Positions 1 through 64,000 of a stretch of 64,000 bases of DNA are shown piece after piece (within the stretch, counting starts at the first letter, position 1; the number at the start of each line of letters is the position of its first letter). The notes under the pieces are model-generated. The model ran no database searches. It worked only from the letters and a program-made list of their open reading frames with translations, and was not told the origin of the DNA. Position numbers and translations under genes: made by a program. Origin of the DNA: Candidatus Poribacteria bacterium (GTDB lineage: Bacteria > Poribacteria > WGA-4E > JAJDTR01); assembly GCA_965222225.1 (NCBI GenBank), contig CBDCTK010000002.1:4102296-4166295 (forward strand), in the 5' to 3' direction.

Positions 1-112
1 GCTGAGACAAGAGCACCGTACAACAATTGCAATCGTCACACACCACGAAGGATTGAAAAAAGATGCCGACCGAATCGTCCAGATGAAAGACGGCCGGATT
101 GTGTCGGAATAA
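1..112 (+). CDS. ABC transporter ATP-binding subunit, C-terminal fragment (gene starts upstream of window)
   Basis: Frame 2..112 reads LRQEHRTTIAIVTHHEGLKKDADRIVQMKDGRIVSE then TAA at 110-112; IVTHH...DRI..M.DGRIV is the conserved H-loop/C-terminal end of ABC ATPases. Confidence 0.6.
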   Translation, partial: LRQEHRTTIAIVTHHEGLKKDADRIVQMKDGRIVSE

Positions 113-217
113 AAGGAATTGGAAACGAGTATCGGGGTCGCAGGAAACGCATACCTTAGACATGGACAAATATTGAAATGGAGAAACAGTGAATCGAGGC
201 ATCGTCACACGGCTTGG

Positions 218-1606
218 ATGAGTATTTTGTTAATCCTTTTCACCTTACTCGTCCATGGACGAGCATTTGCTGAATTATACGAAGGTCCCCCGGATCTTGA
301 GGAATTGGCAATGGGGCAGGGAGGGCTAACCGGAGGTGGTTTGTCATTCATTGACGGCGATCCGTTCGTTCGTTTCCAAGTTCAGCCGGATATCGGAATC
401 GGTAAGGTCGGATTTGGGCTGGGTTTCGTGCTGCTCTATAATCCGGATGCGCAGGAGGGAGAGGATCAGATACTTGCTGAAGATGCGGAAATGTGGGATA
501 ATCCCGGCACGATGCTGCGCGCCATTCGTTACATACGTTATGCGCAGCCACGCGACCCGTTCTATGCACGTCTCGGTGAATTGGGTTTCGTGACGATCGG
601 GCATGGGTTAATCATGTCCGGGTATTCTAACTACGTCCGCCGCGGCATTAGAGCCAATCTCAGAACCGAATCACGTAGAATTGGAGCCGAATCGGTAATC
701 AATGACCTCGTAAATCCGAGGATATTTGGAGGTCGTTTATTCATCCGACCGCTACAGGGAATTAATACGGCATCAATGCTCGGCGGATTGGAACTCGGTG
801 CGACTTACCTGACCGACATCACGCCGGATATCATTCCCGATGACGAGACACCCGGCAAAGAGAATACAATCGATGAAGTTCCATTGATAGCATTGAGCGT
901 CGATGTTGGATTCCCTCTTATTGAGAACGAGCTGTTCCGGTTGGATTTATACGATGAGTTCGCGTTCCTCAACACGCAATCAAGCATCAAGGATTTAGCA
1001 GAATCTGAACCTCCGTCCGGGAACGCGATAGGGATCGGGTTGACATTCCCTAGTTCGCTCTTCAAAGTCGAGTACCGTACCTTTACCGCGGGTTTTATCC
1101 CGACGGTATTTGATTATTCCTACCAAGCTTCCGCCGTTGATTCCGTTCCCGTGTTCCTCGGACTAGGGCCAGACGTAGATAAAGGAAAGGCGAGGTACGG
1201 GTATTTCTCCATGTTTGCTTGGCAACCGATCCCGATGCTCCATATACTGGGGGCATTTGAGGACTACAATATCAGCTATCCGAAGTTGTACGCTGGTATT
1301 ACTGAATCCGGTATAGTTCAAAAAATATCGTTCCGGGCGTTCTATACCAAGCGAGACCTTGGTGAACCCGATATCGGATACCCCGACACCGAAGGCAGCG
1401 AGGACCCAAGCCTCCTCAAAGATTTGTTCCACCTTGATGAAAAATCCGCACTAATTGTTCGCGTCGAATACGAGCTATATAAGCCCGTCGTAGTAGCAGT
1501 CGTCCGTGAGTTTCGTTTTCGTCAGAGGGAAGACGCGGATGGTTTGACCGATTTTGAAACCATCCAAAAAACCACAGTCGAAGTCGGTCTTAATCTTCAG
1601 TTTTGA
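218..1606 (+). CDS. secreted protein, probable outer-membrane beta-barrel (unknown family)
   Basis: ORF track gives 119..1606 from a TTG; the in-frame ATG at 218 gives MSILLILFTLLVHGRAFA, a classical signal peptide; C-terminus TVEVGLNLQF has alternating hydrophobics ending in Phe, the OMP beta-barrel signature. Confidence 0.5.
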   Translation: MSILLILFTLLVHGRAFAELYEGPPDLEELAMGQGGLTGGGLSFIDGDPFVRFQVQPDIGIGKVGFGLGFVLLYNPDAQEGEDQILAEDAEMWDNPGTMLRAIRYIRYAQPRDPFYARLGELGFVTIGHGLIMSGYSNYVRRGIRANLRTESRRIGAESVINDLVNPRIFGGRLFIRPLQGINTASMLGGLELGATYLTDITPDIIPDDETPGKENTIDEVPLIALSVDVGFPLIENELFRLDLYDEFAFLNTQSSIKDLAESEPPSGNAIGIGLTFPSSLFKVEYRTFTAGFIPTVFDYSYQASAVDSVPVFLGLGPDVDKGKARYGYFSMFAWQPIPMLHILGAFEDYNISYPKLYAGITESGIVQKISFRAFYTKRDLGEPDIGYPDTEGSEDPSLLKDLFHLDEKSALIVRVEYELYKPVVVAVVREFRFRQREDADGLTDFETIQKTTVEVGLNLQF

Positions 1607-1765
1607 AAAATTACGAGAAGTTCCAACCGTCTTAATGGTACAAGATAGTTAGGAGATTACTTGGGCATGAGACGGTGTGCACCTGTTCTGAATCCTCGGC
1701 CTCCGGGACTTTACCATCCACCTCGCAATCACTATCGTATCCGAGTCATGATATAAGGACCAACC

Positions 1766-5405: not shown

Positions 5406-6261
5406 ATATTATGACGCCAGTGCAACGATACCTGTTTTATACGACCAGTTCATCCACCTGAGATACGTTTTAAGCCCGGAGGAATTAGAAAGGGCACAAG
5501 AAGCTGCGGACCGTTACATCAATTCGCCGCCCGAAGAAATGCCGATTGGATTCGGCGAGTGCGATGTGCACGGCAATCATTGATGGTTTGCTCGCGGTTT
5601 TGCCTTTGGTAGGGCGCTGGAACACCTAACGATGCACCCGGCGGTCTGGCCCATTGTCAAAGAGATGACTGGAAACAAACCTTGCTTCTGTCGCGGCAAC
5701 TTGATGGTGGATACAGGCGAGCATACCCCTTTTCCGCTTCACGGTGGTGGAGTCGGACACACCATGGTTTTGGGAAACAATGCCGATGGAATAAACAGTC
5801 TGCGCGGCATCGGAAATCCAGGCAACCTTTACTGTGAACTATTTGACGCTTTCTGGTATTTGACCGACGTTAATCCCGGCGATGGCGGTTTCATAGTGGT
5901 GGTCGGATTACACAAAGCTGAATTCGAGTTGCCTTATGAGCAGAAGACGTATGCGTCTGCCGAAGATCTTTCAGACGGAGTGGTGAACATTACGCGCAAC
6001 GCTGGAGATTGAATCATTTCTCCCGAATCGGTCTTTCACGGCTCCCTGCAATGGGAACCCAAGGATGGAGATCATTGGTTTATTGTTAGGCGATACGCGT
6101 CTCAGTATCAACAAGCATTTCACCTTGAGGAGGATTGGCCCGAAAATCTGGCGCCGAAGTTTCTTGAGTGACTGCCTCCCGAAACACGAGACTTGCTAAA
6201 GGTCGCGTGGCGTCCGCACGACTATCATATTACCAAACGCGATGAAATCCGTTTGAAATAG
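5406..6261 (+). pseudogene. phytanoyl-CoA dioxygenase (PhyH) family gene, degraded (no start codon, in-frame TGA at about 5582, frameshift near 6010)
   Basis: Three frame pieces read YYDASATIPVLYDQFIHLRYVLSPEELERAQEAADRYI...HGNH*WFARGF...MHPAVWPIVKEMTGNKP...FWYLTDVNPGDGGFIVVVGLHKAEF (PGSH motif mutated to VGLH)... then in another frame ESVFHGSLQWEPKDGDHWFIVRRYAS (PhyH C-terminal RR.Y motif). Confidence 0.55.
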
Positions 6262-9215: not shown

Positions 9216-10022
9216 ATGGTTATTGAAGAGATGTTGGGGTGTCTGCGAATTGACGGATGGTGTGTGGTACCGGATGTCATTCCTCAAGTTCAAATCGCCC
9301 CCATACGCAAAAACGTTGAGGAAACGACATACGCGCACGGCATCAAGACTAGGGCAGATGGAGTGGCAGCCTGCAAGGGACTGTTGGCTTTTGACCAGTC
9401 GTTTGCTCCCTGTCTTGCCGACGAGCGTATCTTGGGGATAGCAGCGGCATTGTTCGGGCCACACGTACGAATCTCCTTTACGACTACCCACATCAACCTT
9501 CCCGGTAATGCGCGCGGCGGTTGGCACGCAGATTGGCCGTTCAATCAAAATAATGCGGGCCATATCCCTGCGCCCTATCCCGACGTCGTCATGCACCTGA
9601 CTGACGATATGGATGCTCTCGCCATTCACTACCGAGACGGGAGCTAACTTAATCGTGCCCGGCAGCCACCGAGCAAACAACAATCCCACCGGAAACAACG
9701 GAGTCGATCCCCTCGAACAGTATCCGGCGGAGACGCAGGCTATCGGAAATGCTGGGAGTGTGTGATGTTCGAGGGCCGGATGTGGCACGCCGCAGCAGTG
9801 AATCACAGTGACAAACCGAGGGTCGGACTAGTCGTGCGATACGCGCCATGGTGGCTGAACTTGGACGTCTTGGACGTATTGAGGCCCGGTTCGGTGGAGC
9901 GAAGACGCATGGTGGACGAAACAGGGCGACAAGATAATGAAGTCCTGCCGGTTCCCCTTCGTGTCTACGAGGCGCTCCCGGCAAACGTCCAGCCACTCTT
10001 CCGGCACTGGGTGGAACATTAG
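9216..10022 (+). pseudogene. PhyH-family Fe(II)/2OG dioxygenase with two compensating frameshifts about 130 bp apart (near 9625 and near 9760)
   Basis: frame0 ...GWHADWPF...VVMHLTDDMDAL, frame+1 TETGANLIVPGSHRANN...AIGNAGSV (the PGSH motif), then back to frame0 MFEGRMWHAAAVNHSDKPRVGLVVRYAPWW (the RxxxxY C-motif). Confidence 0.65.
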
Positions 10023-11600: not shown

Positions 11601-11623
11601 CCAGTCTCGTAGAGCGGTTGGAA

Positions 11624-11764: not shown

Positions 11765-12776
11765 TTACTGCGCTGATTTGATGTCGTAGTCAACCAATTC
11801 TGCGATCCCGTTAGGAGTTTCGATTTTGACAGGGCCGACACTTGGGGCGAGCCACATCGTTTGCAAATTCAGGTTTTGCATTAGACTCGGAAGGAGTTTT
11901 GTTAGTTCGCTGTTAAGCTCATCTTCCAAATGCTCAAGGAGCGCCTTGTTTTGGTCTTTAGTATAATCGCGGGCATTCCACGCGCCTATTTCATACACCA
12001 GCGTTTCGACAGGCGTTGCCTCTGCGCTATATTCAAGTTTCAGACAGTTCTCGAATCTGCCTGTGGACGTCGTTACCGCGGGCTCAAAAGACGTAGTTCC
12101 CCATATACGTATGTCAACTTCAAAATCGTGGATGTAATTTCTAGGGATAAAGTTGTAGTACCCAGTTATCGTCATATGAATTACTTTTCTTTTTTGGGGG
12201 TAATCGGGTGGGAAATGCAGCAAAGTAAAATCACTGTGCTCAATGACCTTTATTTTGGAGTAAAACAGGAAGACTAAGACGCTGTCGTGTGCTTTTGGTG
12301 TGGTCCACACTCCGTTAATGTATACATGATGGCGTCTTCCAAAGCCCGAGGAATCGTCTTCGCTCTGCAGGACAGTTTGCCAAATAGCGTCGTTTATGTC
12401 GTTTTTCTTGTTTAGGAGGAAAATGCCGTCTGAGGCAACCACATTAGGTAGGTGATTTGATAAAATCGGGATGCTTGTCTGCGAGAGGCGGATTATAGGT
12501 GAAAGAATAGTAGGAATCGTGCTCAATAATTTCCGACTGGGCGACCTCGCGCGACCATTCGGAGCCGTCGGGATTTCGGTAAACCCAGCGGTTACCGAGA
12601 GACATGGGAAAATAAATGGTGGACGCGTCGGCACTACTTTCCCCGCCCAAGGTTGTACCTCTGATGTTGTCGATTGGTTCGTCACCACAGCCAAAAGACA
12701 ATAGGATAACGGCAAAGGCAACAACTAGCGTAAAACAGCGAGGAACTGTAGGTGTAAACGGGGTGCGATGGAGCAT
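11765..12776 (-). pseudogene. lipoprotein paralog A (frameshift near 12445 splits it into 12444..12776 and 11765..12724)
   Basis: N-terminal piece has lipobox LLSFGCGDEP and ends ...HPDFIKSPT, exactly where intact paralog B continues YVVAPDGIFLLNKKNDINDAVWQTVLQS; the continuation VVASDGIFLLNKKNDINDAIWQTVLQS is in the other frame. Confidence 0.55.
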
Positions 12777-12782: not shown

Positions 12783-13796
12783 CTAGGGTGCTATCTGGTA
12801 GTCAATCAATTCGGCGATGCCGTTAGGAGTTTCGATTTTTACGGGACCGACGTCCGGGGCGAGCCACATGGTTTGCAAATTGAGGTTTTGCATTAGACTC
12901 GTAAGAAGCTTTGTTAGTTCGCTGTTAAGCTCATCTTCTAAATGCTCAAGAAGCGACTTGTGTTTGCCTTCATCCCAGCGGGCATTCCGCCCGCCTATTT
13001 CATACAGCAGCGTTTCGACAGGCGTTGCCTCCACGCTGTATTCAAGTTTCAGACAGTTCTCGAATCTGCCTATGGACGTCGTTACCACGGGCTCAAAAGA
13101 TGTGGTATTCCATATACGCACTTTAGCTTCAAAACCGTGGACGTAACTCCTAGGGTCGTGGTCGTCGTCGTTGTTCCCACTTATCGTCATACGGATTACT
13201 TTACTCGTTTGGGTGTAATGGGTGTAATCGGACGGGAAATGCAGCAAAGCAAAATCACTGTGCTCAGTAACCTTTATTCTGGAGTAACCCAGGAAGACTA
13301 ACATGTCTTCGTGCTCTCGTCGTGTGGTCCACACTCCTTTACTGTATTTCTGCGAAAATCCCCAGCCCGTGCCCAGGCTCTGCAGGACAGTTTGCCAAAC
13401 AGCGTCGTTTATGTCGTTTTTCTTGTTTAGGAGGAAAATGCCGTCTGGTGCAACGACATAGGTAGGCGATTTGATAAAATCGGGATGCTTGTCTGCGAGT
13501 GGCGGATTGTAGGTGAAAGAATGGTAGGAATTGTGCTCAATAATTTCCGACTGGACCTGGACGATCTCGCGCGACCATTCGGAGCCGTCGGGGGTTCGGT
13601 AAACCCAGCGGTTACCGGTAGACATGGGGAAGTAAATCGTGGAGGGTGGGTCGTCACTACTTTCCTCGTCCGAGGTTCTGGTGTTGTCGATTGGTTCGTC
13701 GCTGCATCCAAAAGACAGTAGGATAACAGCAAAGGCAACAACTAGCGTAAAATAGCGAGGGGTTGTAGGTGTAAACATTATTGCCTCCAAGGCCAT
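12783..13796 (-). CDS. lipoprotein paralog B (unknown function)
   Basis: signal peptide plus lipobox VAFAVILLSFGCSDEP; about 75% identical to paralog A over 300 aa; no recognised domain. Confidence 0.55.
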   Translation of the reverse strand: MALEAIMFTPTTPRYFTLVVAFAVILLSFGCSDEPIDNTRTSDEESSDDPPSTIYFPMSTGNRWVYRTPDGSEWSREIVQVQSEIIEHNSYHSFTYNPPLADKHPDFIKSPTYVVAPDGIFLLNKKNDINDAVWQTVLQSLGTGWGFSQKYSKGVWTTRREHEDMLVFLGYSRIKVTEHSDFALLHFPSDYTHYTQTSKVIRMTISGNNDDDHDPRSYVHGFEAKVRIWNTTSFEPVVTTSIGRFENCLKLEYSVEATPVETLLYEIGGRNARWDEGKHKSLLEHLEDELNSELTKLLTSLMQNLNLQTMWLAPDVGPVKIETPNGIAELIDYQIAP

Positions 13797-15549: not shown

Positions 15550-16090
15550 TCAGGCTTTGCCTTCAGACTTTCGCATGCGGTTTACGCGCTTGGTTAACGC
15601 CTCTCTTGAAATACTCAAGAGTCGAGCCGCAATGGTCTGCTTTCCATCGGCGCGCTTAAGCGCCTCCTCAATCACGAGTGGTTCTACTTCTTTCAACGAG
15701 GGCAGGTTTCGCGCGCGAGCTAATGTCTCGGTAAACCCGACCTCCCTCGCTCCGGTCACGGTGTCCTTGTGCAAAGCAGAAGTTTGTTCGTCAATCGCTT
15801 CCCGAAAAGGTTCTGTGGACAGTACGCCGCCTTTGTGCTGACTCACGGCGTCGTGCACCATCGCCTCAAGCTCTCTGATGTTTCCGGGGAAGTGGTAGGT
15901 CCCAAGCAGCGTAAAGAGCTCCGGTGGAGGCGTAGGCGTTTTTTGCCAAGCGCATTGCCGGATTGTTTGAGGAAATGGGATACGAGCAAAGGAATGTTCC
16001 CCTTGCGCTCACGCAGCGGAGGCAAAAGTACAGGTCTTCGCGGAAAGTTCCGCCCGCTGTCAGAAATTCAATCGTCCGATCCGTCGTCAC
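15550..16090 (-). pseudogene. sigma-54-dependent transcriptional activator (NtrC/Fis family), 5'-truncated and frameshifted remnant
   Basis: three frame pieces: GTFREDLYF (FREDLYYRL motif), PPLRERKGNIPLLVSHFLKQ (ESR/RER... sigma54-interaction C-region), and NIRELEAMVHDAVSQ...KQTIAARLLSISREALTKRVNRM (Fis-type HTH); Walker A, GAFTGA and receiver domain absent. Confidence 0.65.
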
Positions 16091-16294
16091 AACCGTTGGC
16101 GGCGCTCAATAATTAGCCGATTGATGCAGCCGCTTCTGGTCAAAAAATCGCCGTAGTCTCTCAATTGACGAGAAGCTAGGTTCAACCAAGTCATAATCGT
16201 TAAGATTAACCTCCTCATGCTTGACACTACTCCAAATCTATCCAGCCGAGGTACCACTGTCTGCTTTTCGGCGTAAGGCCTGGTTCTCTCCCCG

Positions 16295-35024: not shown

Positions 35025-35083
35025 AATATCTCCTTCCTGACCTTTCTGGTTAGTTAGAAGAATTATATCATAAATCTATCTAT

Positions 35084-46963: not shown

Positions 46964-47770
46964 AACAAAATCCTCTACACAGGGATGGGATGAAGTTCAT
47001 TTAAGTTATCAAGAAACGTAGACGCATCTGGAACGAGCAGAATACGTGATGCGTTTTCCTCGTGTAGCACGGTATCCACAACATCTAACAAGGCCCCGTT
47101 CAATCGGCAACGCGTATATGAAGCAACACGTTGCATTGAGCTAATCCGAGAGATTATGGCGCACTACAAACAGCTAGAGCTTGATTACAATGGACCAGAA
47201 ATGGAGGAGACAAACTTAAAAGAAGAGGACTACATCGTTCTGAGTTTGTAACCGGAATCATACGAAGGAATCTTATCGAGTGAAAATACATACGAGTACC
47301 GTATCCAGTTTAGAAAAAGACCAACAATAGCCTTTGTCTATTTAATGTCACCGGTAAAATGTATCAGTGGCATCATTCGATTCGACACACCACTTATCGA
47401 TTCGCCGGAAGAAGAGGAACAGAAGCTTGGCAACTGCAAGCCCGTAATTGAATACCTATCAAGATATAAGTTGGGATATGCTATTCCCATCGCAAGGTGA
47501 CGGAAATCACACCTGTGTCGTTGGCTAGTTTGCAATCGAAATACAATTTCACACCGCCTCAGGCGTTCCTGTATTTGAAGAACAACAGACCTCTCTTTGA
47601 TTTCTTGGTTATCCAATGAAATTTGGAAACCTTAATCGCAGGGGAAATTCTCTCCCAGATTCTACCTCATTAGCTGCTTTTTTATGACCACTGTTTTCAT
47701 CGGAAGGAATCCCCATAGAAATTTTGAGAGAATTGAAGTTTGACCGCGCGGTAGGGGAGCATTCTCGAAG

Positions 47771-52137: not shown

Positions 52138-53620
52138 AGGGGATCAAGTGAGTGAATAGCGAATGATCAACTGAGCGAACAGCGAAGGCGATAGAGTTCC
52201 CATAGAGATCCCTCCTCGCCCGCTCCCTTTCGGCAGAAATCCCTATATCCAACCACGCCCAGTCCATTGCGAACCACAATCCTGCGAGGCTATATGTAGG
52301 GTGCGCACCGCGCACCAGCCTTTTCGTCGTACTCGCGCGATAGAGTTCCTACCAGCCTTCCTATGCACCCGTAGGAGCGGCCTCGCGGTCTCGCTTGCGC
52401 AAGCCGGAGCGTCTGTCGTGAATATGCAGGTTGCGGGGCGGTGGAAATCCCCTCGGATGCCGGCGCATTATGCCCGCGCCGAGTTGGCAGAGCAAGGAGC
52501 AATTGCACGCTTCAAATACGGGAAAGACGGTGGGGGGTAGCGAACCGGGAAGGATAGTTGAGGGAAAGTACATATGTAGGGTGGGCACTGCCCACCATTT
52601 TTCTTAGGTGCGATTAACCGCCTGTTTAAGCCCGTGGGTTGGGATGAACGAAACCGAGAATTCCGGTGTCGACACACCAAACTTCCTCAAACTGGCTGAC
52701 CCGTCGGATAGCATCAAGGAAAGAGTGAAACCCAACTTCACCCCCTACGTCATCGGACACCTCCCCGGCAAACGTTGGGTTTCACTAGGATCACCGAGAA
52801 TTTATTCCGAATAGCGTCCCACAATCGTCGTGTCATGCTTGGTGTTTTTGCTTGTTACCGTTCAACCCAACCTACGCGCTTCCCACCATCTCTTATGGGG
52901 TACGATAGCCGATCCCGATAGAAATCCCTCAAGCAAACCAGATCGTGGGGGCGAGGTCTCCTCGCCCATTCTGTTGCGCACCCTAATCCCGTGCGGTAGA
53001 GCGTCCATTCCGCCAACCCCACACCTCCGCCACACCAATAAACGGCACATGCTCCTCCCACCGCCGACTCAACCCGCCGTTCCTAATCCACGTAATCCAA
53101 TAATCCATCAAGCGAGTGAATAGATCGTGTGACCGAAAAGGATCAAGGGCGCGAATAGCGACCGCGATAGAGATCCGCCATGTCTGTCGCAAACCGATAG
53201 CCCCGTCTTGCACTCCAGCTGAGAACAAGCGACTGAATGAGGAGTGATCGAACCAATGGACACTGAATACGATAGGGAATCCTGATAGTATTTCCCACTG
53301 CGATGGAGTTCTTAAAATGAAGTTAAACGTCGCGCCTTGCACTCCAGCGGAGTGCGATGTCGATAGAACTGCAATGCGTACAATCTTCGCGCTCCAAAGG
53401 AGCGCAATGTCGGTAGGATGGCGATTCGATAAGGATCAAACGAGTGAACAGTGGTCTCCGTAGGGGCGCGATCAACTGACTAGATAAGGAAGGATCAAGT
53501 AAGTGAATAACGATCAACCGACTGATTAGGGAGGACGATAGTAGATTCTGCGCGATAGAATTCCTATAGAGATCCCCCCGCGCCCAATCCCGCGCGATAG
53601 ATTTCTCATAGCAATCACGA
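52138..53620. repeat. 1.5-kb gene-poor tract densely packed with the modular dispersed repeat (at least six copies in both orientations)
   Basis: e.g. 52138-52212 GGGGATCAAGTGAGTGAATAGCGAATGATCAACTGAGCGAACAGCGAAGGCGATAGAGTTCCCATAGAGATCCC; 53107-53180; 53222-53290; 53410-53620; only short overlapping ORFs. Confidence 0.6.
52301..52540 (+). pseudogene. C-terminal fragment of a tyrosine recombinase (integrase) gene
   Basis: SGLAVSLAQAGASVVNMQVAGRWKSPRMPAHYARAE...ARFKYGKDG parallels the C-terminus of the intact integrase at 58873..59784 (GHSLRIGSAVSLAEAGASVKEVQRAGRWQEPTMPARYVREA...ARYKAGK). Confidence 0.55.
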
Positions 53621-53907: not shown

Positions 53908-54993
53908 TTGAGAATTGAAAACGTCGACTTTCCCAAACCGTTGATAGAAGCCTTGCATGACAACGAACTCGTAGTGTTCGCTGGGGCTGGCGTTTCAATC
54001 GGTAAACCTGCCCGTCTGCCCAGTTTCAGATCGTTGACCAATATTATCGCCGAAGGTACCGGGAAAACGGCGCGCGATGGCGAGACGCCTGAGCAATTCC
54101 TCGGAAGATTAAAAGACCAAGGCGTAAAAGTGCATGTGCGCGCTGCGCGACCGCTTTCTCAAGAAGGTTTGCAGGCTACGGCCCTTCATCAAGATCTTCT
54201 TAGACTCTATCCTAAAACAGCGCCCGTTCGCCTCGTCACCACTAATTTCGATCCCCTGTTTGAGCAGGCAGCCTTTGAGCAGGCAGCCGAGGAAATATTC
54301 GACAGTTCGCCAGAAGTATTCCGGGCACCCGCGCTGCCTTTGGGACGTGAGTTCGACGGCATTGTTCATGTTCACGGTTCAGTCCGTCGCCCTAACGAGA
54401 TGTTACTTACGGATAGAGATTTTGCTCGCGCTTATCTGACCGATGGCTGGGCTCGACGCTTTCTCGTCGAACTTTTCAGTAATTTCCGAATCCTCTTTGT
54501 TGGCTACAGTCATGACGACACGATTATGAATTATCTGGCCCGCGCGCTTCCTGCCGGTTCGGAATACCAACGTTTCATTTTGACCGGTTCCGAAGACAAG
54601 AAACCCTCTGATGATTGGCGTTCACTAGGGATTGAACCGATAGTCTACCCTCAGGCTAACGAAAATGACTATAGTGAACTCGACACAAGCATTCATGGCC
54701 TCGCCGAACTTGTACAGCGACGCGTTGTTGTTTGGAATGATGAAATAACCAATATAGCGCAAGTTCCGCCTCCCACTGACGAGAATAAGGCAGATCTCAT
54801 TGAGTACGCGCTAAGCGATGAAGTAAACACAAGGTTCTTTGCAAAAGCGGCTTCAGATCCTGATTGGATTGACTGGCTCGACGAGCGTGGACATTTGACC
54901 GCGCTATTCCGCGACGATATACTCACCGCGCAAGCCAAAACCTTGTCTTGGTGGTTGGCAGATCGATTTCTTTTCGGAATTAGTAGCTTGTAG
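53908..54993 (+). CDS. SIR2-like (DHS-like NAD-binding, SIR2_2 type) domain protein; candidate NADase defence effector, probably the 5' part of an IS-disrupted longer gene
   Basis: LVVFAGAGVSIGKPARLPSF (GAGxS), VTTNFDPLFE (TTNYD) and VHVHGSV (catalytic His) are the three SIR2_2 hallmarks; ORF ends abruptly 20 bp before an IS1595 element. Confidence 0.75.
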   Translation: MRIENVDFPKPLIEALHDNELVVFAGAGVSIGKPARLPSFRSLTNIIAEGTGKTARDGETPEQFLGRLKDQGVKVHVRAARPLSQEGLQATALHQDLLRLYPKTAPVRLVTTNFDPLFEQAAFEQAAEEIFDSSPEVFRAPALPLGREFDGIVHVHGSVRRPNEMLLTDRDFARAYLTDGWARRFLVELFSNFRILFVGYSHDDTIMNYLARALPAGSEYQRFILTGSEDKKPSDDWRSLGIEPIVYPQANENDYSELDTSIHGLAELVQRRVVVWNDEITNIAQVPPPTDENKADLIEYALSDEVNTRFFAKAASDPDWIDWLDERGHLTALFRDDILTAQAKTLSWWLADRFLFGISSL

Positions 54994-54999
54994 CTTTTA

Positions 55000-56215
55000 G
55001 ACTGACGACAAACATAAAACTTGGTACCCTGTCGTAAATCTTTTCGTCACACGTAGATGTCCATAGTGACTATTCTTCTCGTAGGAGTTTGCTATGGACA
55101 TTTTGAATCTTATGAAAGAGTTTCCAAATCAAGAATCTTGTCTCAGATTTATAGAGGAAAAACGTTGGAAGGACGGTGTTTGCTGTATCCACTGTGGCAG
55201 TGAAAAAGTTGGACGCAAGAACAAAAACGACATTACTACTGGTTGGAATTGCTACGATTGTGAATCTAGCTTTTCGGCTACAGCAGGAACCATCTTCCAT
55301 GGTACCAAGATACCTCTCCAGAAATGGTTTTTGGCTATCTCAATTCTTTCCAATGCCAAGAAAAGCATATCGAGTTGTCAGCTTGCTCGTGACTTGGACA
55401 TGAATCAAAAGTCCGCTTGGTATATGGCAATGCGCCTCCGTGAGAAAATGAGTGATAGTGATGAATTGCTGAAAGGGATAGTTGAAGCGGACGAAACCTA
55501 TGTCGGCGGCAAACCCAGAGCAAAATCTAAGAGAGGTAGAGGCACAAATAAATCTCCCGTCATCGGCGTAGTCGAGAGAGGCGGTCGGGTGGTTGCTAAA
55601 TTCATGAAGGTTCTATCTGGTGAAAATATCAGAGAATTCATCCTTAGCAATGTCTCACCCGATGAGTCTATTCTTATGACTGATGAATTTCGCTCTTACA
55701 ATAGTCTGGACGAAGATATCGAAAGACATGTTATCCATCACCAAGAGAGATATGTTTCTGAGGACGGCGTAACTCACACCAACACCATCGAGTCGTTTTG
55801 GGCTTGTGTCAAGAGGTCATTCTACGGAACGCATCATCACTACAGCAAGAAGTGGCTGCCACTGTATATCATGGAGTCTTGCTGGAAATATAATCGCAGA
55901 AAAGATGATGAGATTTTCATAAGATTTTTTGATGAATGCTTCACCTGAGCCACATGAATTGTTTGGCTATCGGTATATTCTGTCAACGACAACATCATGG
56001 TGTGCTGAAAATCCCATAGTGTTGGAAATTAAAATCCCGCAGATAACCCGCAATGCTCCCGCGAGCATGTACAAACGCTTGGTCAACATGATATGCCTCC
56101 ATTTCTCTCTTATAGAGATGTATTTTAGTGTGAATCAAGATTCCGAACACTGTCTAAAATGATTGTACATTAAGAAGAGAAAAGCAAGCAAATCGACCAA
56201 AAAGCAGTTAACTAC
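55000..56215 (+). mobile_element. IS1595-family insertion sequence (boundaries approximate)
   Basis: single transposase gene with N-terminal CxxC zinc ribbon and E-x-DETYVGG motif; I could not define the terminal inverted repeats by eye. Confidence 0.55.
55094..55948 (+). CDS. IS1595-family transposase
   Basis: CIHCGSEKVGRK...CYDCESSF zinc ribbon; EADETYVGGKPRAKSKRGRG; DDE-type C-terminal region. Confidence 0.8.
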   Translation: MDILNLMKEFPNQESCLRFIEEKRWKDGVCCIHCGSEKVGRKNKNDITTGWNCYDCESSFSATAGTIFHGTKIPLQKWFLAISILSNAKKSISSCQLARDLDMNQKSAWYMAMRLREKMSDSDELLKGIVEADETYVGGKPRAKSKRGRGTNKSPVIGVVERGGRVVAKFMKVLSGENIREFILSNVSPDESILMTDEFRSYNSLDEDIERHVIHHQERYVSEDGVTHTNTIESFWACVKRSFYGTHHHYSKKWLPLYIMESCWKYNRRKDDEIFIRFFDECFT

Positions 56216-56274
56216 TAAGTCCCTTTCTTTTCAACCATGCAAACAGACTTTTCCTGCTCATTGGTAAGCATAAT

Positions 56275-58626
56275 ATGCGCTTGCATCCGCAGCTCTGGCG
56301 CGATATGGGTTGGAAACTTGCGAGGAATGGTGAAGTTTTTTCTGATAAAGACACGCTTCGCCGCTGGTTTTCACTGTTGCTTACCTCTCTTCGAGAGAAA
56401 ATAAGCATGAACGATCTGATGCATGTCGACACGGACTATCTCCTGCCTCAGATGGGTGAACTTTGCATAGCAAACGAAATGCTGGATGATTTATTGCAGA
56501 TATTCGATTGGATGATGGAAAGTCGCATTCGGATTAACAAAGGATACTCGTGGCCTTCTGCCGACGATGACAGGGAAATACCCTCTGTTGATGCTGAATT
56601 AATTCCAATTAGCGAACAACACGAATTGAATGAACTGTGGGAAGTGGGACTGAAGCCTAAGCTACCTCAAGTAGCCAAGCCGTTACTCGATCGGGTAATC
56701 AGGCGGCTAGAAGGACAATATCTCACACTGTGTACTTGGGGAAAGGTGCACGGCACATGGGATCCAATGAGCGAGGGACGTTCTGCCATTGAGCCTGAAG
56801 AAGGGGATGGTAATACCGAATCGATTGATGTGATGATCAATGCGGCCCGCGATTGCCTCTTATGGCTGGCTTCCAATCAGGTAGAAACAGCGACACAATG
56901 GTGTAATCGGCATGTGCGTTCGGGAGTAACTCTGCTACGCAGACTTGCGGTACATGGGGTGTACAAACGCGAAGATTTAACAGCAGACGACAAAATTGAT
57001 TGGTTACAAACACACATAAATCAGATTGGGTTGTCGGTTGGCGCCGAAGTGTTCCCGTTACTACAGCAAGCCTATCCCGAAGCCTGCCCGGCACATCGAA
57101 GCTCGCTTATTGAAGCCATGTGGACTTACCGTTGGCCTAAGGAAACAGCTTCGGACGGAGATAAGCATGCGGCAAGGCAACAATTCGACTGGTTTAATTG
57201 CATCCATCGATGTGTTCCTGACTGCCTCTTGGCTAAAGCAGCGTTGGATAAAGTGTTGGCGCGGTACCCAGAATTCAAGTCGATGGTACCTCAACCTCCG
57301 ACACAAGGAGGCATATCAGGTCCAATCGCGCCGCAAAGTGCTCCGCCCCCTGAAGAACTACCGCCAACACCTTCCGCCGATCAACTACACGAGTTACTGT
57401 CAAATCAAACTGCAGCGTGGGATGAAGCTAAACATAGTCAAGTATTCCAGAGGCTTGTCAGAATTGAGTTGTATCCAAAATATAGTCACGCGATTGCCAA
57501 TGCGCTCTATGCACTGGTAGAGAACGGTGGTCCCTCCTATGCCTTAAAACTACTCCCGCAAGCCCAGCGAATCGCTTCGGCACTGTGGCCCCATCTTGAC
57601 CGGACCGCGCCAATCGATGCAAGAGGAGACTGGCTATTCGCCGCCATGAATCACCCGGCAGGGCTCCTGGCTTACTTCTGGATATCTGCACTCTCACTCT
57701 GGCGCGAGCACCACGATCCTAAACCTACAATTCTCAACGATGACTATCGTAGGGCGCTGTCCGACATTGTGGTGGACCGGTCGCCGGCAGGTACGCTCGG
57801 GCGGACGGTTCTCGCCAGCAAATTGCATATTCTCTTGGACGCTGACCAGGTATGGACACGTGAATATCTTCTTCCGCTTTTTGACCCGTGCAGCGATGAC
57901 TTCCAAAGTGCGTGGGACGGTTTCGTAAAATGGGGAAAGCTCAATCCTTCGGTCGCTAAAGCCATGACTGATCTATTCCTCAAGGCAGTTACGCGGATCG
58001 GCACCGACCTCTTCAACCAACGTGATTCATTCGTAAAACACTACATCGCTATGCTCATAGATTCCATTTATATCGCCGAAGACCCTCTCAGCGAATGGAT
58101 TCCTAAGATATTCAATCACGGCAGCCAAGATAGTCCTTCTGCCGATAGCGAACCTACGCTTTTTCCCCGCGCCAATCGATCTATTGCGGAGATCTTTGCA
58201 TCAGTTATGAGTAGCCGCTTACGGAATATGCCTGAAACCGAGCAGCGGGAGTTGTGGGAGCACTGGCTCAAGGATTACTGGCAGAATCGCCTGGAAGGTG
58301 TGCCCTCCCCACTTATGTCTAGCGAAGCTAAACTCATGCTCGATTGGCTGACGGCTTTGACTGCGGTATTTCCCGATGCCGTCGCGCTTGCTGTCCAGAT
58401 GCCATCGACTTCGTTGGAGCGTACGAGGATTCTATCTTCTCTGGTGAAAAATAGTACATGGTTGAGCCATCCCGATGCGGTCGCGAAGTTATTGATTTAT
58501 CTGTGGCAATGCGGTATACCGGCACACTATTGGCACTTAGTGCAGAAGATCGTTGCCCCCCTCGTCGAGTCGAAAATCCCGGCAGAACTTCAGCAGAAAC
58601 TGGAGGACATCAGAATCCAACTCTAG
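56275..58626 (+). CDS. large all-alpha-helical protein (783 aa), possibly the displaced C-terminal sensor part of the SIR2 gene
   Basis: reading frame is open upstream of the annotated Met back to 56217 with no RBS; highly helical, Leu/Ala/Trp-rich repeats. Confidence 0.5.
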   Translation: MRLHPQLWRDMGWKLARNGEVFSDKDTLRRWFSLLLTSLREKISMNDLMHVDTDYLLPQMGELCIANEMLDDLLQIFDWMMESRIRINKGYSWPSADDDREIPSVDAELIPISEQHELNELWEVGLKPKLPQVAKPLLDRVIRRLEGQYLTLCTWGKVHGTWDPMSEGRSAIEPEEGDGNTESIDVMINAARDCLLWLASNQVETATQWCNRHVRSGVTLLRRLAVHGVYKREDLTADDKIDWLQTHINQIGLSVGAEVFPLLQQAYPEACPAHRSSLIEAMWTYRWPKETASDGDKHAARQQFDWFNCIHRCVPDCLLAKAALDKVLARYPEFKSMVPQPPTQGGISGPIAPQSAPPPEELPPTPSADQLHELLSNQTAAWDEAKHSQVFQRLVRIELYPKYSHAIANALYALVENGGPSYALKLLPQAQRIASALWPHLDRTAPIDARGDWLFAAMNHPAGLLAYFWISALSLWREHHDPKPTILNDDYRRALSDIVVDRSPAGTLGRTVLASKLHILLDADQVWTREYLLPLFDPCSDDFQSAWDGFVKWGKLNPSVAKAMTDLFLKAVTRIGTDLFNQRDSFVKHYIAMLIDSIYIAEDPLSEWIPKIFNHGSQDSPSADSEPTLFPRANRSIAEIFASVMSSRLRNMPETEQRELWEHWLKDYWQNRLEGVPSPLMSSEAKLMLDWLTALTAVFPDAVALAVQMPSTSLERTRILSSLVKNSTWLSHPDAVAKLLIYLWQCGIPAHYWHLVQKIVAPLVESKIPAELQQKLEDIRIQL

Positions 58627-60301: not shown

Positions 60302-61155
60302 TTAGAACACACCCTCCCTTACCATCGTTCGGTTCAACTTCTTCACCACCGCCGGCGTCACCGGATCGTTGTCCGGGAGGAATCCCTCTCCCTTCTTTAG
60401 TTTAACAGCCGCAACACTGTCCAACTCAGCCAGCTTCTTAGCCCCTTGCACCGCCTTCAGATCGCCCCCGTAGTACTCGTACCAAGGCAGCTTCGCGTTT
60501 GTGTAATCCTGAGCCGTCGGCGGCTTCCCTGGCGGCTCGCAACCCGTCACTTTGAGGAGCTCCACGCGCTATTCACGATATGAACGAAGCAGCGCGAGCC
60601 GGTCGACGTGTCCCACGCATCGATGCCGTATTCGTCCTCGTATATCTCCTGCCGCATAAGACCGCCCGGCGCCAACCCCATCCGCGGTTCCTCGCGAAGT
60701 ACATAGTAGTCTGCTCTGCTCAGGTTCTTATCAAGTGGCAGTTCCTCGTATATCGACCGCTTCATCGGATAGACAGCAATCTGGAGCCCGCCGTGCTCCG
60801 CCTCGCCCGTTAGCTGCTCCTCCGCCGTGAAACCCTCACCCAGCGGCATCGCCACGAACTGCCGAATTAGCCCCTTCTCCACGCAGAACCCGTCCAACCA
60901 CGGTTGACCCGGCACCACCAAGTAATCCTGCCGCTCCCCGCTGAGCTCCTCCTCCCATGCCCCCCCGGTCACCGTGTTGACTTTGCCCGCTGCTATCTTC
61001 ACCGCCATCGGATAGTCGCCGTGGAAACAGATCCACATCGCCTCCGCTTGATACATCGGGGTGAACACCCCGCCATGTTTCCTCCACGTTTCCGGCAAGT
61101 TATCCGGGTAGTCGTCCACTCGACTCAGCGGGAATCTCCCAAGCCCCGGCGGCAA
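60302..61155 (-). CDS. hypothetical protein, apparently frameshifted (60547..61155 and 60302..60565 overlap by 19 nt in different frames)
   Basis: ORFs only; no recognisable motif; the two pieces abut as expected for a single disrupted gene. Confidence 0.3.
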
Positions 61156-61727
61156 ATAATGTTTTCGGTTGTCGTCCGGAATCCGCAGCGTACGCTGGAA
61201 TTCAATCGCGAGCTCGGCAAATCCGTATATCTCCGGAAATCGAAATATAATCTAATCGTTTCTCAGTTCAATAGTTTTTTTCCCGTTCCTAGTCCTATTA
61301 GCCATAATCATAGACCTCTCTGTTTTTTAATTCCTGATGAGCAAAACACTTCAACACGTAATATGTATTATAACAGGATTTATATAACTTAACAACCGAA
61401 AACATCAAGCCCTTTCCAATTCAGCCCCGCCGCCCTTGTAGCCCCTCTTCTACGGTCGCAATCCCCCGGCGGACGCGCCCGCTGTTCGTGGCGTGGGGTA
61501 CGCTGCACACTGCTATCAAGCCAGCTAGCCGGCGAATACCGAGTGCGGTAGACATCCCCTCCAGCCGGCGCCGCGCAAATACGCCTAAGCAACGGGCAAC
61601 GGCAACCCTCGAAGCGATGCGGGCTGCTTTGGTGTCGTGCCGAGGCGCCGCCCTGCGCCACCAACTGATCGAACATATTGATGGATTGAAAAACGATAAA
61701 GCGAATGGCCAACTGACTGGATAATGA

Positions 61728-61805
61728 AGGATCCACTGAGATCAACCGACTGATTAGGGAGGACGATAGTAGATCCTGCGCGATAGAGTTCCCATAGAGA
61801 TTCCA
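61728..61805 (+). repeat. copy of modular dispersed repeat
   Basis: GAGATCAACCGACTGATTAGGGAGGACGATAGTAGATCCTGCGCGATAGAGTTCCCATAGAGATTCC. Confidence 0.55.
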
Positions 61806-62161
61806 TGAATCCTAGTTCGGACAATCCCGTCCCCTTCCCCACTCTCCACCGCTCTCTCAAGTGCAAAAGATTTACGGAGTTGGTAGTTAGAGACTGGCAA
61901 TATTGAACAAGCACGTATACGTATGAGTGGGAGTGTAGTTATTTTCTGACACCTGCACATAAACGTGCTATTATACGGTAAGTATCAAGAAGTTCATCCG
62001 CTATCAGGGAAGGGTGGCATACGATAACAGCACACGACACAACAGCGAATTTATTATAGCGCTTCTCTATTGGCTTAGGTATAGTATAATGGGGCGGTTG
62101 CAACACAGTGGCGATTGATTCGATACATGCAACACATGAAGATAAAAGAAGGGATAAACCA

Positions 62162-64000
62162 ATGACACGCTTTATTTGTATCCTAGCCTTGCTCCTAGGC
62201 CTGATGACATGGGTATACGCCCAACCCGTCAACATGCCCGACCCAAACCTACGCACCGCAGTGCGCGAATCTCTTGATCTTCCAAATGGCGCACCGATTA
62301 CGCGTGATGCTATGCTTCAGTTGATTAAGCTTCGTCCTGGAAGCCGCGGCATTGAAAATCTATCCGGTGTGGAGTTCGCAAAAAACCTCAGAGAACTATC
62401 AATCTGGGGCAACCCCATAACCGATCTCAGTCCTATCGCCGGACTAACTAAGTTGGAACTGCTGTACATGTGGGGGACACCGATTTCGGATATTACACCA
62501 CTAGCGAATCTGGCGAATCTGATAAATTTGCGTCTGAACTATTGCAACGTTGCCGATATAAGCCCAGTTGCACATTTGCTTAAACTTGAGAAACTGTCAT
62601 TAGCCGGAAATGGGATCACCGACGTTGGACCTCTTGCCAACTTAACGCAACTCCGACTCCTCAACCTCGAAAACAATGGCATTGTGGATGTGCGTCCGTT
62701 GGCGGGCCTGCGTCGATTAGAAACATTAACAATAGAGGGCAACCGTATAACAGACCACAGTCCACTTGATGGATTGTCGTTGGAACACTTTACACATGAC
62801 CTCGAAACGCCGTGCGACATGGCGCCGCTTCCTTTGGAGCCTCGTATAGAGAATAGAAACTTCCCCTCCCTCTTTTCCGCCTGGATCGATCGGAATAAAT
62901 ACTCGGCATACGATTTGATCTTCTGCTGCCCTCGGTTCGAGAGTTGGCTTGTTGAAACGGCCGACGGTTTTCAATTCCGTACCGCGCATTCATCGTGGGA
63001 TGGACCGGTTCAGATACGCGACGGCTACCTAGAACAAAACCCGACTATGGTATTTTTGCACGGACTATCTGTAATTTGGCATGAGCTGGACTCCCTGCCC
63101 GAAGATTCTCCTTGGTGGCTGCGTGATGAACAAGGGAACATACTTCCAGCCTGGGATATGGGCTTAATGAATCTTAATCATCCGGGTTGGCAGCAGCGGA
63201 TGATTGACATAGCGGCGACTATAGATCAATGCGGTTTGTACGACGGGATTTTCATCGACGGCTGGAGTGAATGGCATAACGAACGGCGCGGGCAACTACC
63301 GGGGCAGGTGGCTATTCTCAAAGGGATACGCGAAAGGGTGCGGGACGATTTTCTTATCATGGTGAACACAAATACCTGGACAGCACCGGTGTCGGCACCT
63401 TACATCAACGGACTGTTTTTGGAATCCGGCTTTCCGGGCGATAGCAACTCACCTGAAGATCTTGAAGAACGTCTGTCGGAACTAGAGGATACGCTGAGAT
63501 GGGCTGAGACCACACTGCTGGAGCCTCGAATCACCGGACTCGAAGGAAGCAACTACCGTGACGAACCGCCAGACAACCCAAAGAATATGCGGTGGATGCG
63601 GGCGACTACCACTTTGGCGCTCACGTTTAGCGACGGTTATGTTGCTTTCCCGTTACGAGGAGGACCTTGGTACGATTTCTGGAATGCCGACCTCGGACGC
63701 CCCGTCGGAGAGACTTTGCAGCTCTATGAACACCGCCCAGGTCTCTACATCCGTGAATTCACGAACGGTTGGGCGGTATACAACCACAGCGGCGCGGCGC
63801 AGGTTGTGACATTGCCGGAAGATGTACAATCAGTAGCTAGCGGATTGAGCAACACGGAACATGCCGTGCTTAACCTGGACGGCGATATTTTTTTGCGGGT
63901 GACGCCGAAGAATCCAGCGGACGTGAACGGGGACGGGGTAGTGAATATCTTGGATTTGACGTTGGTGGCACAGGGGTTCGGCGGCGATCGACCGGGCGCC
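62162..64000 (+). CDS. secreted leucine-rich-repeat protein with central TIM-barrel-like (glycosidase-like) region and dockerin-like C-terminal repeat; runs off the window end
   Basis: my own translation from ATG 62162 (GAAGGG RBS) is open for 613 codons to 64000; signal peptide MTRFICILALLLGLMTWVYA; 22-residue LRR units L..L..L.L..N.I.D..PLA; DVNGDGVVNILDLTLVAQ matches the dockerin type I Ca-binding repeat. Confidence 0.6.
   Translation, partial: MTRFICILALLLGLMTWVYAQPVNMPDPNLRTAVRESLDLPNGAPITRDAMLQLIKLRPGSRGIENLSGVEFAKNLRELSIWGNPITDLSPIAGLTKLELLYMWGTPISDITPLANLANLINLRLNYCNVADISPVAHLLKLEKLSLAGNGITDVGPLANLTQLRLLNLENNGIVDVRPLAGLRRLETLTIEGNRITDHSPLDGLSLEHFTHDLETPCDMAPLPLEPRIENRNFPSLFSAWIDRNKYSAYDLIFCCPRFESWLVETADGFQFRTAHSSWDGPVQIRDGYLEQNPTMVFLHGLSVIWHELDSLPEDSPWWLRDEQGNILPAWDMGLMNLNHPGWQQRMIDIAATIDQCGLYDGIFIDGWSEWHNERRGQLPGQVAILKGIRERVRDDFLIMVNTNTWTAPVSAPYINGLFLESGFPGDSNSPEDLEERLSELEDTLRWAETTLLEPRITGLEGSNYRDEPPDNPKNMRWMRATTTLALTFSDGYVAFPLRGGPWYDFWNADLGRPVGETLQLYEHRPGLYIREFTNGWAVYNHSGAAQVVTLPEDVQSVASGLSNTEHAVLNLDGDIFLRVTPKNPADVNGDGVVNILDLTLVAQGFGGDRPGA

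Follow-up and report, generated by a model that had tools for sequence, protein, structure and literature searches.

The window, which is the whole 64-kb stretch of DNA analysed here, is chromosomal DNA of Candidatus Poribacteria, a sponge symbiont (31 of the 31 closest loci belong to Poribacteria MAGs), and contains 12 disrupted loci among approximately 52 gene loci, which very probably represent derived lesions and real gene decay, as accessory genes of this host-associated bacterium undergo ordinary birth-and-death. Checked locus by locus, every lesion listed in the preliminary description is present in the sequence, its density of about one per 5 kb holds, and the host-associated lineage it suggested agrees with the organism. 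The lesions comprise nonsense substitutions, 1–2-nt indels, truncations and an IS insertion. Decay is limited to expanded accessory families, a strain-variable island (11530-16295, missing from the assemblies L041 and L045) and a defence/mobile island (52–62 kb of the window), where the expanded families are GH36-like glycosidases, PD40 beta-propellers, PhyH dioxygenases, histidine phosphatases and lipoproteins. As judged by alignment with sister strains, the decay is polymorphic and recurrent, with independent inactivation in different strains. Comparable MAGs are PacBio HiFi metaMDBG assemblies of sponges (PMC12181767).

The GH36 family contains psi-GH36-2 (21416..23341, minus strand), an alpha-galactosidase-like gene interrupted once, by the nonsense change TGG to TGA at 22286-22288, and the intact paralogues GH36-1 (19372..21351, minus strand; Melibiase and GH36 Pfam matches), GH36-3 (23358-25394) and GH36-4 (25694-27694), which share 33–42% identity among themselves and, where intact, have dN/dS values of 0.13–0.17. 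The equivalent codon of GH36-2 is TGG in L041 and L045, and orthologues are intact in strain L041 (P0004; 641 aa, 97%) and, with approximately 80% amino acid identity, in L002, L005, L006, L007 and L008. The break differs by strain, being TGA in the window and a 2-nt deletion in L045, and the 90% cluster of GH36-2 includes several other truncated forms and at least seven intact members; one truncated form (424 aa, starting with MPWSDGL) is recorded in one JGI and one ENA assembly. Conserved motifs of psi-GH36-2 are altered, e.g. WFEP to RFEP. GH36-4 is disrupted in L041. In L001 one GH36 gene is a hybrid, and PD40 is represented by one gene only.

The PD40 tandem array (29709..36067) consists of five plus-strand copies, one of them broken: PD40-1 (29709-30731), PD40-2 (30786-31763), psi-PD40-3 (31814..32790), the intact PD40-4 (33176-34162) and PD40-5 (35084-36067), with an IS1-family element (34306-35024, minus strand), which probably uses programmed frameshifting, inside the array. 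The TolB-like beta-propeller psi-PD40-3 is interrupted by TAG in place of AAG at 32120-32122 and lacks 1 nt near 32692; it shares 76% amino acid identity with the adjoining PD40-4 across the stop and carries its C-terminal 32 residues in another frame. The copy number and content of the array vary between strains and species, and one PD40 gene is broken in L047. In psi-HisPhos-1 (44532..45254, plus strand), the nonsense codon TAA at 44676-44678 replaces TAT, which is retained in L043, L046 and L047, while L043 has its own 1-nt deletion farther downstream than the stop site in the window. The intact tandem paralogue HisPhos-2 (45409..46131, plus strand; Pfam His_Phos_1) shares 70% amino acid identity with copy 1, and a tract common to the two copies (44682-44831; 95–98% identical), beginning directly after the stop, suggests an event resembling gene conversion. 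In psi-lipoprotein A (11765..12776, minus strand), as aligned at the DNA level with paralogue B, one additional A at approximately 12445 shifts the frame and leads to a TAA codon. The tandem paralogue lipoprotein B (12783..13796, minus strand) is intact, with a continuous 337-aa ORF and a lipobox signal peptide, and shares 71–81% amino acid identity with the two halves of A.

Both PhyH copies are broken. The old pseudogene psi-PhyH-1 (5411..6261, plus strand), encoding a PhyH-like dioxygenase, contains three in-frame TGA codons (5581, 6010 and 6169) and an N-terminal frameshift near 5435, and its PGSH motif is lost (now VGLH). It matches residues 8–282 of the intact 283-aa homologue P0146 in a single frame by tblastn (70% identity), where the three TGA codons align to R, C and R. 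L039 and L040 carry every one of these lesions in identical form, together with one extra 1-nt deletion at 5946. The PhyH-family gene psi-PhyH-2 (9216..10022, plus strand) has a T insertion at approximately 9601 and a 1-nt deletion at 9763, placing the catalytic PGSH segment out of frame, while its orthologues are intact in L001, L003 and L004 (ORFs of 288–298 aa) and in strain L045 (265 aa, Pfam PhyH). These two lesions are nested, as the first is present in four assemblies including the window (the others being L039, L040 and L041) and the second in three (shared with L039 and L040).

Among the remaining loci, the sigma-54 EBP remnant (15553..16105, minus strand), located at the edge of the strain-variable island, is spread over three frames and has lost its 5' part, presumably about 300 codons judging from typical family members. 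What survives is limited to the last part of the AAA+ core plus the lid and the Fis-type HTH: one frame holds AAA_lid_14 positions 29–82 together with HTH_8, another lid positions 1–37, and the third a FREDLYF motif. The N6/N4 DNA methylase gene (39232..40215, plus strand), whose lesion was missing from the earlier list, carries TAA instead of TCA at codon 24 (39301-39303), upstream of an intact catalytic domain (Pfam N6_N4_Mtase); the codon is TCA or TCT in the aligned L043, L046 and L048, and the gene is disrupted in L047 too. A degenerate ORF had been placed at 47140-47630; it is indeed broken by a frameshift and a stop, with different bounds, being a conserved hypothetical gene of 109 aa (psi-orf109; 47345..47670, plus strand) in which 1 nt is missing near 47497 and a stop occurs prematurely. 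Its intact counterparts (109 codons) in L043, L046, L047 and L048 share 95–100% amino acid identity among themselves, and orf109 matches no Pfam family. The conserved hypothetical pseudogene at 60302..61251 (minus strand) is frameshifted by the loss of 1 nt near 60560, and an in-frame TAG stands immediately before its homologous N-terminus; its rejoined product (313 aa) matches single uninterrupted genes on six plasmids, of which the best match, 346 aa long and from Euzebya pacifica, has 46% identity at 99% coverage.

The defence/mobile island also contains a tyrosine-recombinase fragment (52373..52537, plus strand), which represents the C-terminal ~50 residues only and shares 57% identity with residues 266–316 of the integrase at 58873-59784, which is intact; the remainder of an integrase is not detectable. 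The SIR2 gene described earlier as split by an IS is confirmed as such and identified as a Dsr1 anti-phage gene, of which the 5' part (53908..54974, plus strand; Pfam SIR2_2) matches positions 8–362 and the 3' part (56232..58626, plus strand; Pfam DUF4020) positions 913–1049 of the 1248-position PADLOC Dsr1 profile. Between them lies a 1249-bp IS1595-family element (54975..56223, plus strand), with a transposase at 55094-55948 (Pfam DDE_Tnp_IS1595 and Zn_ribbon_IS1595), imperfect terminal inverted repeats and an 8-bp target duplication, TTTCTTTT, at 54967-54974 and 56224-56231. Removal of the element and one copy of the duplication restores a single Dsr1 ORF of 1153 codons, the product of which matches the Dsr1 profile with E = 3e-48. 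The transposase, duplication, inverted repeats and excision-restored ORF are all shared with known IS1595-family insertional inactivation, and the window shows nothing unusual in this respect; no further copy of the element is present in the fetched loci.

Nearly every paralogous family was previously said to have exactly one disrupted member, which is correct for GH36 (1/4), PD40 (1/5), HisPhos (1/2), the lipoprotein pair (1/2) and the integrases (1/2), but not for PhyH (2/2 copies broken) or for the enolase and GFO pairs (none broken). The pattern is statistically indistinguishable from chance, as four random lesions would fall one in each of the four tandem families with a probability of about 0.11, and tandem families are not significantly enriched in disruption (4/13 vs 8/39, Fisher p = 0.47). 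It is a mere snapshot, because different members are broken in sister strains. In the birth-and-death model of Nei and Rooney, tandem multigene families reportedly evolve by duplication, gene conversion, unequal crossing-over and the non-functionalisation of copies that are redundant. The window shares with this model one dead copy in each of four tandem families, dead PD40, lipoprotein and HisPhos copies adjoining an intact copy of 70–81% identity, the conversion-like HisPhos tract, and the variable copy number and hybrid gene in relatives. It differs in GH36-2, which is an old paralogue with only 33–42% identity to its neighbours and orthologues conserved in other species, and whose loss is not the simple decay of a fresh duplicate.

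The comparisons show three processes at work: copy number is altered by tandem duplication, unequal recombination and gene conversion, single copies are lost by spontaneous nonsense substitution, 1–2-nt indel, truncation or IS insertion, and dead copies gather additional lesions. Purifying selection on the affected genes is probably weak, given their redundancy or dispensability within the sponge; loss-of-function alleles would therefore recur and segregate between strains living side by side, with core metabolic genes remaining strongly constrained. The relaxed selection with ongoing decay proposed earlier is right as to the decay, but relaxation is not general: measured in one gene, GH36-2, it gives a near-neutral dN/dS of 0.76 against L041 within the species, while most intact neighbours have values of 0.03–0.25 against sister strains and species, the higher values of a few short intact genes resting on very few differences.

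It is quite unlikely that the window-specific lesions are sequencing, polishing or strain-mixture consensus artefacts in genes intact in the organism, and the error-prone assembly once offered as an alternative is disfavoured. Such artefacts would fit the majority of lesions being private to the window, as those of 9 of the 12 loci (GH36-2 TGA, PD40-3, HisPhos-1, methylase, lipoprotein A, orf109, the 60.5-kb gene, the IS insertion and the integrase fragment) are found in no other assembly compared. Within 36–49 kb, 3/13 genes are broken in the window vs 0–1/13 in four sister assemblies, so that this genome appears to carry a somewhat heavier load than related ones. Coverage of some sister assemblies is low (6x, 11x), and a few of their private indels may be errors. 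Mixed-strain metagenome consensus can also yield chimeric sequence, and one sister truncation (P0131) lies at a G6 run. However, five of the lesions specific to the window consist of base substitutions, an infrequent type of error in accurate long- or short-read consensus, and none of the small frameshifting indels lies in a long homopolymer (at most T4), in agreement with the earlier remark on their context. Moreover, the six PhyH lesion sites (four in PhyH-1, two in PhyH-2) recur identically in two further assemblies from different samples, L039 and L040 (one of them a scaffold assembly from a separate metagenome), with one site also present in a third. Intact neighbours show 0–1 indel per 10 kb against sister assemblies (one in 11.5 kb vs L039, none in 9.1 kb vs L041), GH36-2 combines its elevated dN/dS with damaging missense changes, and the target duplication at the IS insertion is perfect.

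It is very unlikely that loss-of-function alleles of leaky or costly accessory functions are selected rather than neutral, being either advantageous or maintained at intermediate frequency within the sponge population. The functions named in this connection are glycosidases, surface propellers, and restriction-modification and defence genes, and example routes are Black-Queen-type cheating and phage- or host-driven frequency dependence. Independent hits do recur (several truncated forms of GH36-2, two hits in HisPhos-1, two in the methylase and several in PD40), and intact alleles persist beside broken ones; however, neutral decay of dispensable genes predicts recurrent hits too, the dN/dS of GH36-2 is near neutrality and not above 1, and psi-PhyH-1 simply goes on decaying.

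It is extremely improbable that the interrupted genes stay functional through stop-codon recoding, programmed read-through or frameshifting. Although psi-PhyH-1 has its three TGA codons within an otherwise single-frame gene and the IS1-family element probably uses frameshifting, the residues opposite the stops in orthologues or paralogues are of six kinds (W, K, Y, S, R and C), the codons at these sites in sister strains are sense codons, and TAA, TGA and TAG terminate 17, 13 and 6 intact genes in the window, as had been anticipated, while a search of the 64-kb window finds no tRNA, SECIS or other Rfam element and psi-PhyH-1 has also lost its PGSH motif. In-frame TGA, TAG or TAA inside homologous frames resembles UGA read as Trp or Gly (codes 4 and 25), selenocysteine and pyrrolysine; the stops of the window differ from these code variants in replacing many residues, being absent from sister strains and serving as ordinary terminators. 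Recoding of the stops is excluded, and they are true terminators. The lesions represent normal gene turnover and no new genetic code or mechanism.

Pseudogenes accumulate in host-restricted bacteria such as Sodalis glossinidius and Mycobacterium leprae. A sponge-associated Tethybacterales bin contains ~25% pseudogenes (PMC8546597). The window shares with such bacteria the lesion spectrum, the host association and the local density of about 12/52 gene loci, but differs in that the 64-kb window gives no sign of genome-wide erosion, decay lies in accessory families and islands and is mostly strain-polymorphic, purifying selection on core genes is strong (dN/dS of 0.03–0.2), the coding density of the region is high, and the genomes of relatives are large, at 5.6–7.0 Mb.

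Twelve of about 52 gene loci in the window are disrupted, corresponding to roughly one lesion per 5 kb, which bears out both the lesions listed in the preliminary description and the density it gave, with one methylase lesion added. In 11 of these loci, homology to an intact gene runs past the lesion, as detected by tblastn or DNA alignment with paralogues, orthologues or database homologues; the exception, the integrase piece, is a fragment of only 51 residues. The lesions of GH36-2, PhyH-2, HisPhos-1, the methylase and orf109 are derived, as a sense codon or an intact frame is found in orthologues or sister strains, and those of PD40-3 and lipoprotein A are judged against paralogues only. 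About one fifth of the gene loci in the window thus need annotation as pseudogenes, and in metabolic or defence inference neither their glycosidases, dioxygenases and propellers nor the defence system, and possibly not the methylase, should be counted as working.

GH36-2 (21416–23341, minus strand), the second of four paralogous GH36-like genes, contains a single in-frame TGA at 22286–22288, where the 98% identical strain L041 has TGG, and its orthologues are intact in five other species at about 80% identity. PD40-3 (31814–32790), compared with its 76% identical neighbour PD40-4, carries a change of AAG to TAG at 32120–32122 and a 1-nt deletion near 32692. The first of the two histidine phosphatase copies, HisPhos-1 (44532–45254), has TAA at 44676–44678, where strains L043, L046 and L047 have TAT. 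In lipoprotein A (11765–12776, minus strand), an extra A at approximately 12445 puts the gene out of frame with copy B, its intact tandem neighbour. The largest ORF of PhyH-1 (5411–6261) has no Pfam match, and the family is recovered only by a full HMMER search, which yields the intact 283-residue homologue P0146, and by a custom HMM. When aligned with P0146 in one frame, PhyH-1 contains TGA at 5581, 6010 and 6169 in place of R, C and R together with an N-terminal frameshift, and its PGSH motif has decayed to VGLH; in addition to these four lesions, a fifth (a deletion at 5946) is present in L039 and L040. PhyH-2 (9216–10022), a second and distantly related copy detected with the custom PhyH HMM, has an inserted T at approximately 9601 and lacks one nucleotide at 9763, and its orthologues are intact in three loci (L001, L003 and L004).

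The remnant of a sigma-54 activator (EBP; 15553–16105, minus strand) is reduced to the last part of the AAA+ core plus lid and HTH, distributed over three frames. The locus at 60302–61251 (minus strand) has a 1-nt deletion near 60560 and an in-frame TAG just upstream of the homologous N-terminus, and its product, rejoined over the deletion, matches single uninterrupted plasmid genes (best match: 99% coverage, 46% identity). The degenerate ORF previously placed at 47140–47630 corresponds to orf109 (47345–47670; 109 codons), which has a frameshift and a premature stop and is intact in four sister assemblies, and only about 50 C-terminal residues are left of an integrase (52373–52537). The added lesion is found in an N6/N4 methylase, where TCA is changed to TAA at codon 24 (39301–39303) in comparison with three sister assemblies. 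This restriction-modification pair (39232–40854) is seemingly lopsided, as the adjoining MutH/Sau3AI-like nuclease is intact; the stop cuts off a small N-terminal helix-hairpin-like segment, and either translation of the methylase resumes further downstream, from the GTG at 39346, or the nuclease lacks activity. Directly after this pair lies a 652-residue fusion of a tRNA-guanine transglycosylase-like domain and DUF5591 (40969–42927), which is intact and conserved in all sister strains and has only a weak DpdA match (E = 9e-4); its role may lie in DNA modification or defence.

The cleanest lesion in the window is that of the SIR2 gene, which is split by an IS1595-family element filling exactly 54975–56223. 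This element encodes a DDE_Tnp_IS1595 transposase (Pfam E = 1.3e-36), contains the inverted-repeat cores GGAATTAGTAG and GGACTTAGTAG, and is flanked by the 8-bp duplication TTTCTTTT; its ends were identified by a joint search for target duplication and inverted repeats, a simple local alignment having given none. Excision of the element and one copy of the duplication restores a single ORF of 1153 codons, whose product contains Pfam SIR2_2 at the N-terminus and DUF4020 and matches Dsr1 of PADLOC over two stretches (E = 3e-48). The SIR2 domain at its start and the long stretch with DUF4020 towards its C-terminus make the restored protein a predicted Dsr1 defence-associated sirtuin. The window contains a second insertion sequence, an IS1-family element (34306–35024, minus strand) between PD40-4 and PD40-5, with overlapping ORFs of 147 and 135 residues which meet at an A-rich KKxK stretch; this junction looks like the programmed −1 frameshift of the family rather than a lesion. 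No further copy of either insertion sequence was found among the fetched loci.

The preliminary description left open an error-prone assembly as the source of the lesions, a reading made unlikely by the following comparisons. The three TGA codons and the N-terminal frameshift of PhyH-1, as well as both frameshifts of PhyH-2, are identical in L039 and L040, and lesions of the two PhyH pseudogenes thus recur in independent assemblies (L039, L040 and L041). The lesions of PhyH-2 form a nested series: the window, L039, L040 and L041 all have the first, the window, L039 and L040 alone have the second, and L045 is fully intact; this nesting is the signature of stepwise decay along a genealogy. Besides these sites, there is one indel in 11.5 kb relative to L039 and none in 9.1 kb relative to L041, and intact genes show 0–1 indel per 10 kb relative to sister assemblies. 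The small indels lie in the contexts CTCGA-CC, CCTA[A]TG, CTGAC[T]GAC, GTGTG-TGA, GCG-TGG and TTCCC-ATCG; the sole frameshift at a run is that in the N-terminal part of PhyH-1, where the run is the longest found (T4) and the frameshift is common to L039 and L040, in agreement with the earlier impression that no homopolymer context is obvious. The indels are thus neither concentrated at homopolymers nor spread evenly over genes, unlike those expected from a sequencing or assembly artefact. The lesions of the remaining loci are private to the window and rest on one consensus sequence, and five of these private lesions are substitutions. Assembly error is therefore unlikely to be the main cause of the lesions.

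Gene decay under relaxed selection, as proposed in the preliminary description, is right in substance, and that description is largely correct; decay and a local relaxation on accessory genes are supported, a general erosion of the genome is not. Most intact genes have dN/dS values of 0.03–0.25 in every comparison (HisPhos-1 being left out), while GH36-2 reaches 0.76 relative to L041, and GH36-4, which is broken in L041, reaches 0.43. Relative to other species, the dN/dS of GH36-2 is only slightly raised (0.17–0.20), so that its relaxation is recent. A decay signature, taken as dN/dS moving towards 1 or as multiple lesions, is present in GH36-2, both PhyH pseudogenes, the EBP remnant, PD40-3 and orf109, where PhyH-2, the EBP remnant, PD40-3 and orf109 have two lesions apiece. 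In other Poribacteria species, 3/83 orthologues of window genes are disrupted according to a curated orthologue census, which replaced an all-against-all split-gene census in which stop-to-stop and antisense ORFs produced false stops. The low dN/dS of most intact genes in the window and the few disrupted orthologues give no sign of genome-wide reductive evolution and point to selection relaxed locally on accessory genes. The lesion spectrum is the same ordinary one found in pseudogenes of host-restricted bacteria, and about 25% pseudogenes are recorded for a sponge Tethybacterales bin (PMC8546597). Classical reductive evolution differs, as here the relatives have large genomes, core genes are tightly constrained and most lesions are strain-polymorphic. 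No publication describing pseudogenes of Poribacteria turned up in searches of the literature; pseudogene decay is new for this lineage but not new in kind, and involves no new mechanism.

That nearly every paralogous family has exactly one disrupted member is suggestive of loss permitted by redundancy, yet the regularity does not exceed chance. Four random lesions would hit each of four tandem families (sizes 4, 5, 2 and 2) once with a probability of 0.11, and disruption in tandem-family genes (4/13) is not significantly enriched over that elsewhere (8/39; p = 0.47). Sister strains break different members, so the pattern is a snapshot of a single strain. In the 90% orthologue cluster of GH36-2, at least seven members are full-length and several others, located on long contigs, are truncated in different ways; one truncated form of 424 residues (start MPWSDGL) is known from a JGI as well as an ENA assembly. 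GH36-2 is broken by a 2-nt deletion within the DNCASGGRR motif in L045 and intact in L041, where GH36-4 has two 1-nt insertions; HisPhos-1 of L043 carries a separate 1-nt deletion, in L047 one PD40 gene is interrupted by a stop and the methylase by three, and L048 has a single HisPhos gene. It is conceivable, and in our judgement improbable, that the recurrent independent knock-outs of GH36-2, GH36-4, HisPhos-1, PD40 copies and the methylase reflect selected or balanced polymorphism instead of neutral decay, with frequency dependence of the Black-Queen type, or driven by phage or host, preserving loss alleles of leaky or costly functions; within a sponge, strains would then differ in which one member of each family is switched off.

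Decay is accompanied by turnover of the arrays, consistent with birth-and-death evolution of tandem families. In L001, which represents the closest species, one GH36 gene (5176–6810 of that locus, compared with window 21419–27757) is a hybrid that takes its N-terminus from paralogue 4 and its C-terminus from paralogue 2, with the switch near window 22331/27034, and a lone hybrid PD40 gene (3076–3987) stands in place of the five of the window (29424–36062); both hybrids indicate unequal recombination among array members. PD40 plus Laminin_G_3 cassettes are present in sister strains instead. A 150-bp tract with 95–98% identity between HisPhos-1 and HisPhos-2, against a background of 55–80%, starts just past the TAA, and an island at 11.5–16.3 kb, which includes lipoproteins A and B together with the activator remnant, is missing in L041 and L045 and different in L039. 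The expanded 'symbiosis' families of Poribacteria are in rapid flux, with loss alleles varying by strain and core genes constrained, which can inform pangenome and population work on sponge symbionts. Identity to the sister strains is also mosaic (window 36419–49019 relative to L043, L046, L047 and L048; 7308–27839 relative to L045): the single contig L045/L046 is 98% identical over 7–28 kb, yet 93% over 36–49 kb, and within HisPhos-1 the identity of L043 jumps from about 88% to 100%. This mosaic suggests frequent inter-strain recombination.

Stop-codon recoding, already thought unlikely, is rejected, as the residues opposite the in-frame stops are W, K, Y, S, R, C and R rather than a single amino acid, the same positions are sense codons in sister strains, the 36 intact genes end in all three stops (TAA 17, TGA 13, TAG 6), and the window contains neither a tRNA gene nor an Rfam family at gathering score that could supply a special tRNA or RNA element; selenocysteine, pyrrolysine and programmed frameshifting of the interrupted genes are likewise rejected, and the dense in-frame stops are explicable without a variant genetic code.

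With the DUF6785 membrane protein (16298–18262, minus strand) as query and one genome per species, 38 loci were retrieved, the best 31 of the 38 being from Candidatus Poribacteria MAGs and the nearest a 6.6-Mb chromosome (OZ240209.1; 96% amino-acid identity). Much of the window is syntenic with relatives at 82–92% nucleotide identity. MAGs of such naming style derive from sponge HiFi metagenomes assembled with metaMDBG (PMC12181767), which makes the window a piece of chromosome from a sponge symbiont. In keeping with this origin, its genes encode GH36-like glycosidases, PD40 beta-propellers, a sulfatase and dioxygenases of the TauD and PhyH types, together with an LRR-GHL15-dockerin protein, the restriction-modification pair, the Dsr1 defence gene and two insertion sequences. 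No exact-protein matches for ArgJ, deoxyribosyltransferase, TauD, GFO or the IS1595 transposase were found in the protein collection searched. Sister strains were identified via members of protein clusters, which gave three assemblies from other samples, L039 (a contig of 374 kb), L040 (a scaffold from the assembly of a different metagenome) and L041, with 97–99% identity to the window. The JGI contigs of this species are only 1–5 kb long.

The protein encoded at 62162–64000 is large and secreted, combines leucine-rich repeats with a dockerin and a GHL15 glycosidase-like domain, and extends past the window end; it is of the eukaryote-like repeat type typical for sponge symbionts. A small Cys/His-rich ORF (4756–4965; 66–69 residues) without a Pfam family is annotated as a gene in L039 and L040 and shows 68–81% identity in other Poribacteria species (L002, L008 and L009). 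Intergenic DNA is occupied by degenerate REP/MITE-like repeats with the core TCTATCGCAnTCGCTATCCGCTCGCTTGATCC and subunits of 22–24 nt (5113–5144, 36247–36278, 52139–52230, 53138–53616, 59962–60209 and 61536–61758), which concentrate at the edges of the defence/mobile island and have copies in many other Poribacteria loci.
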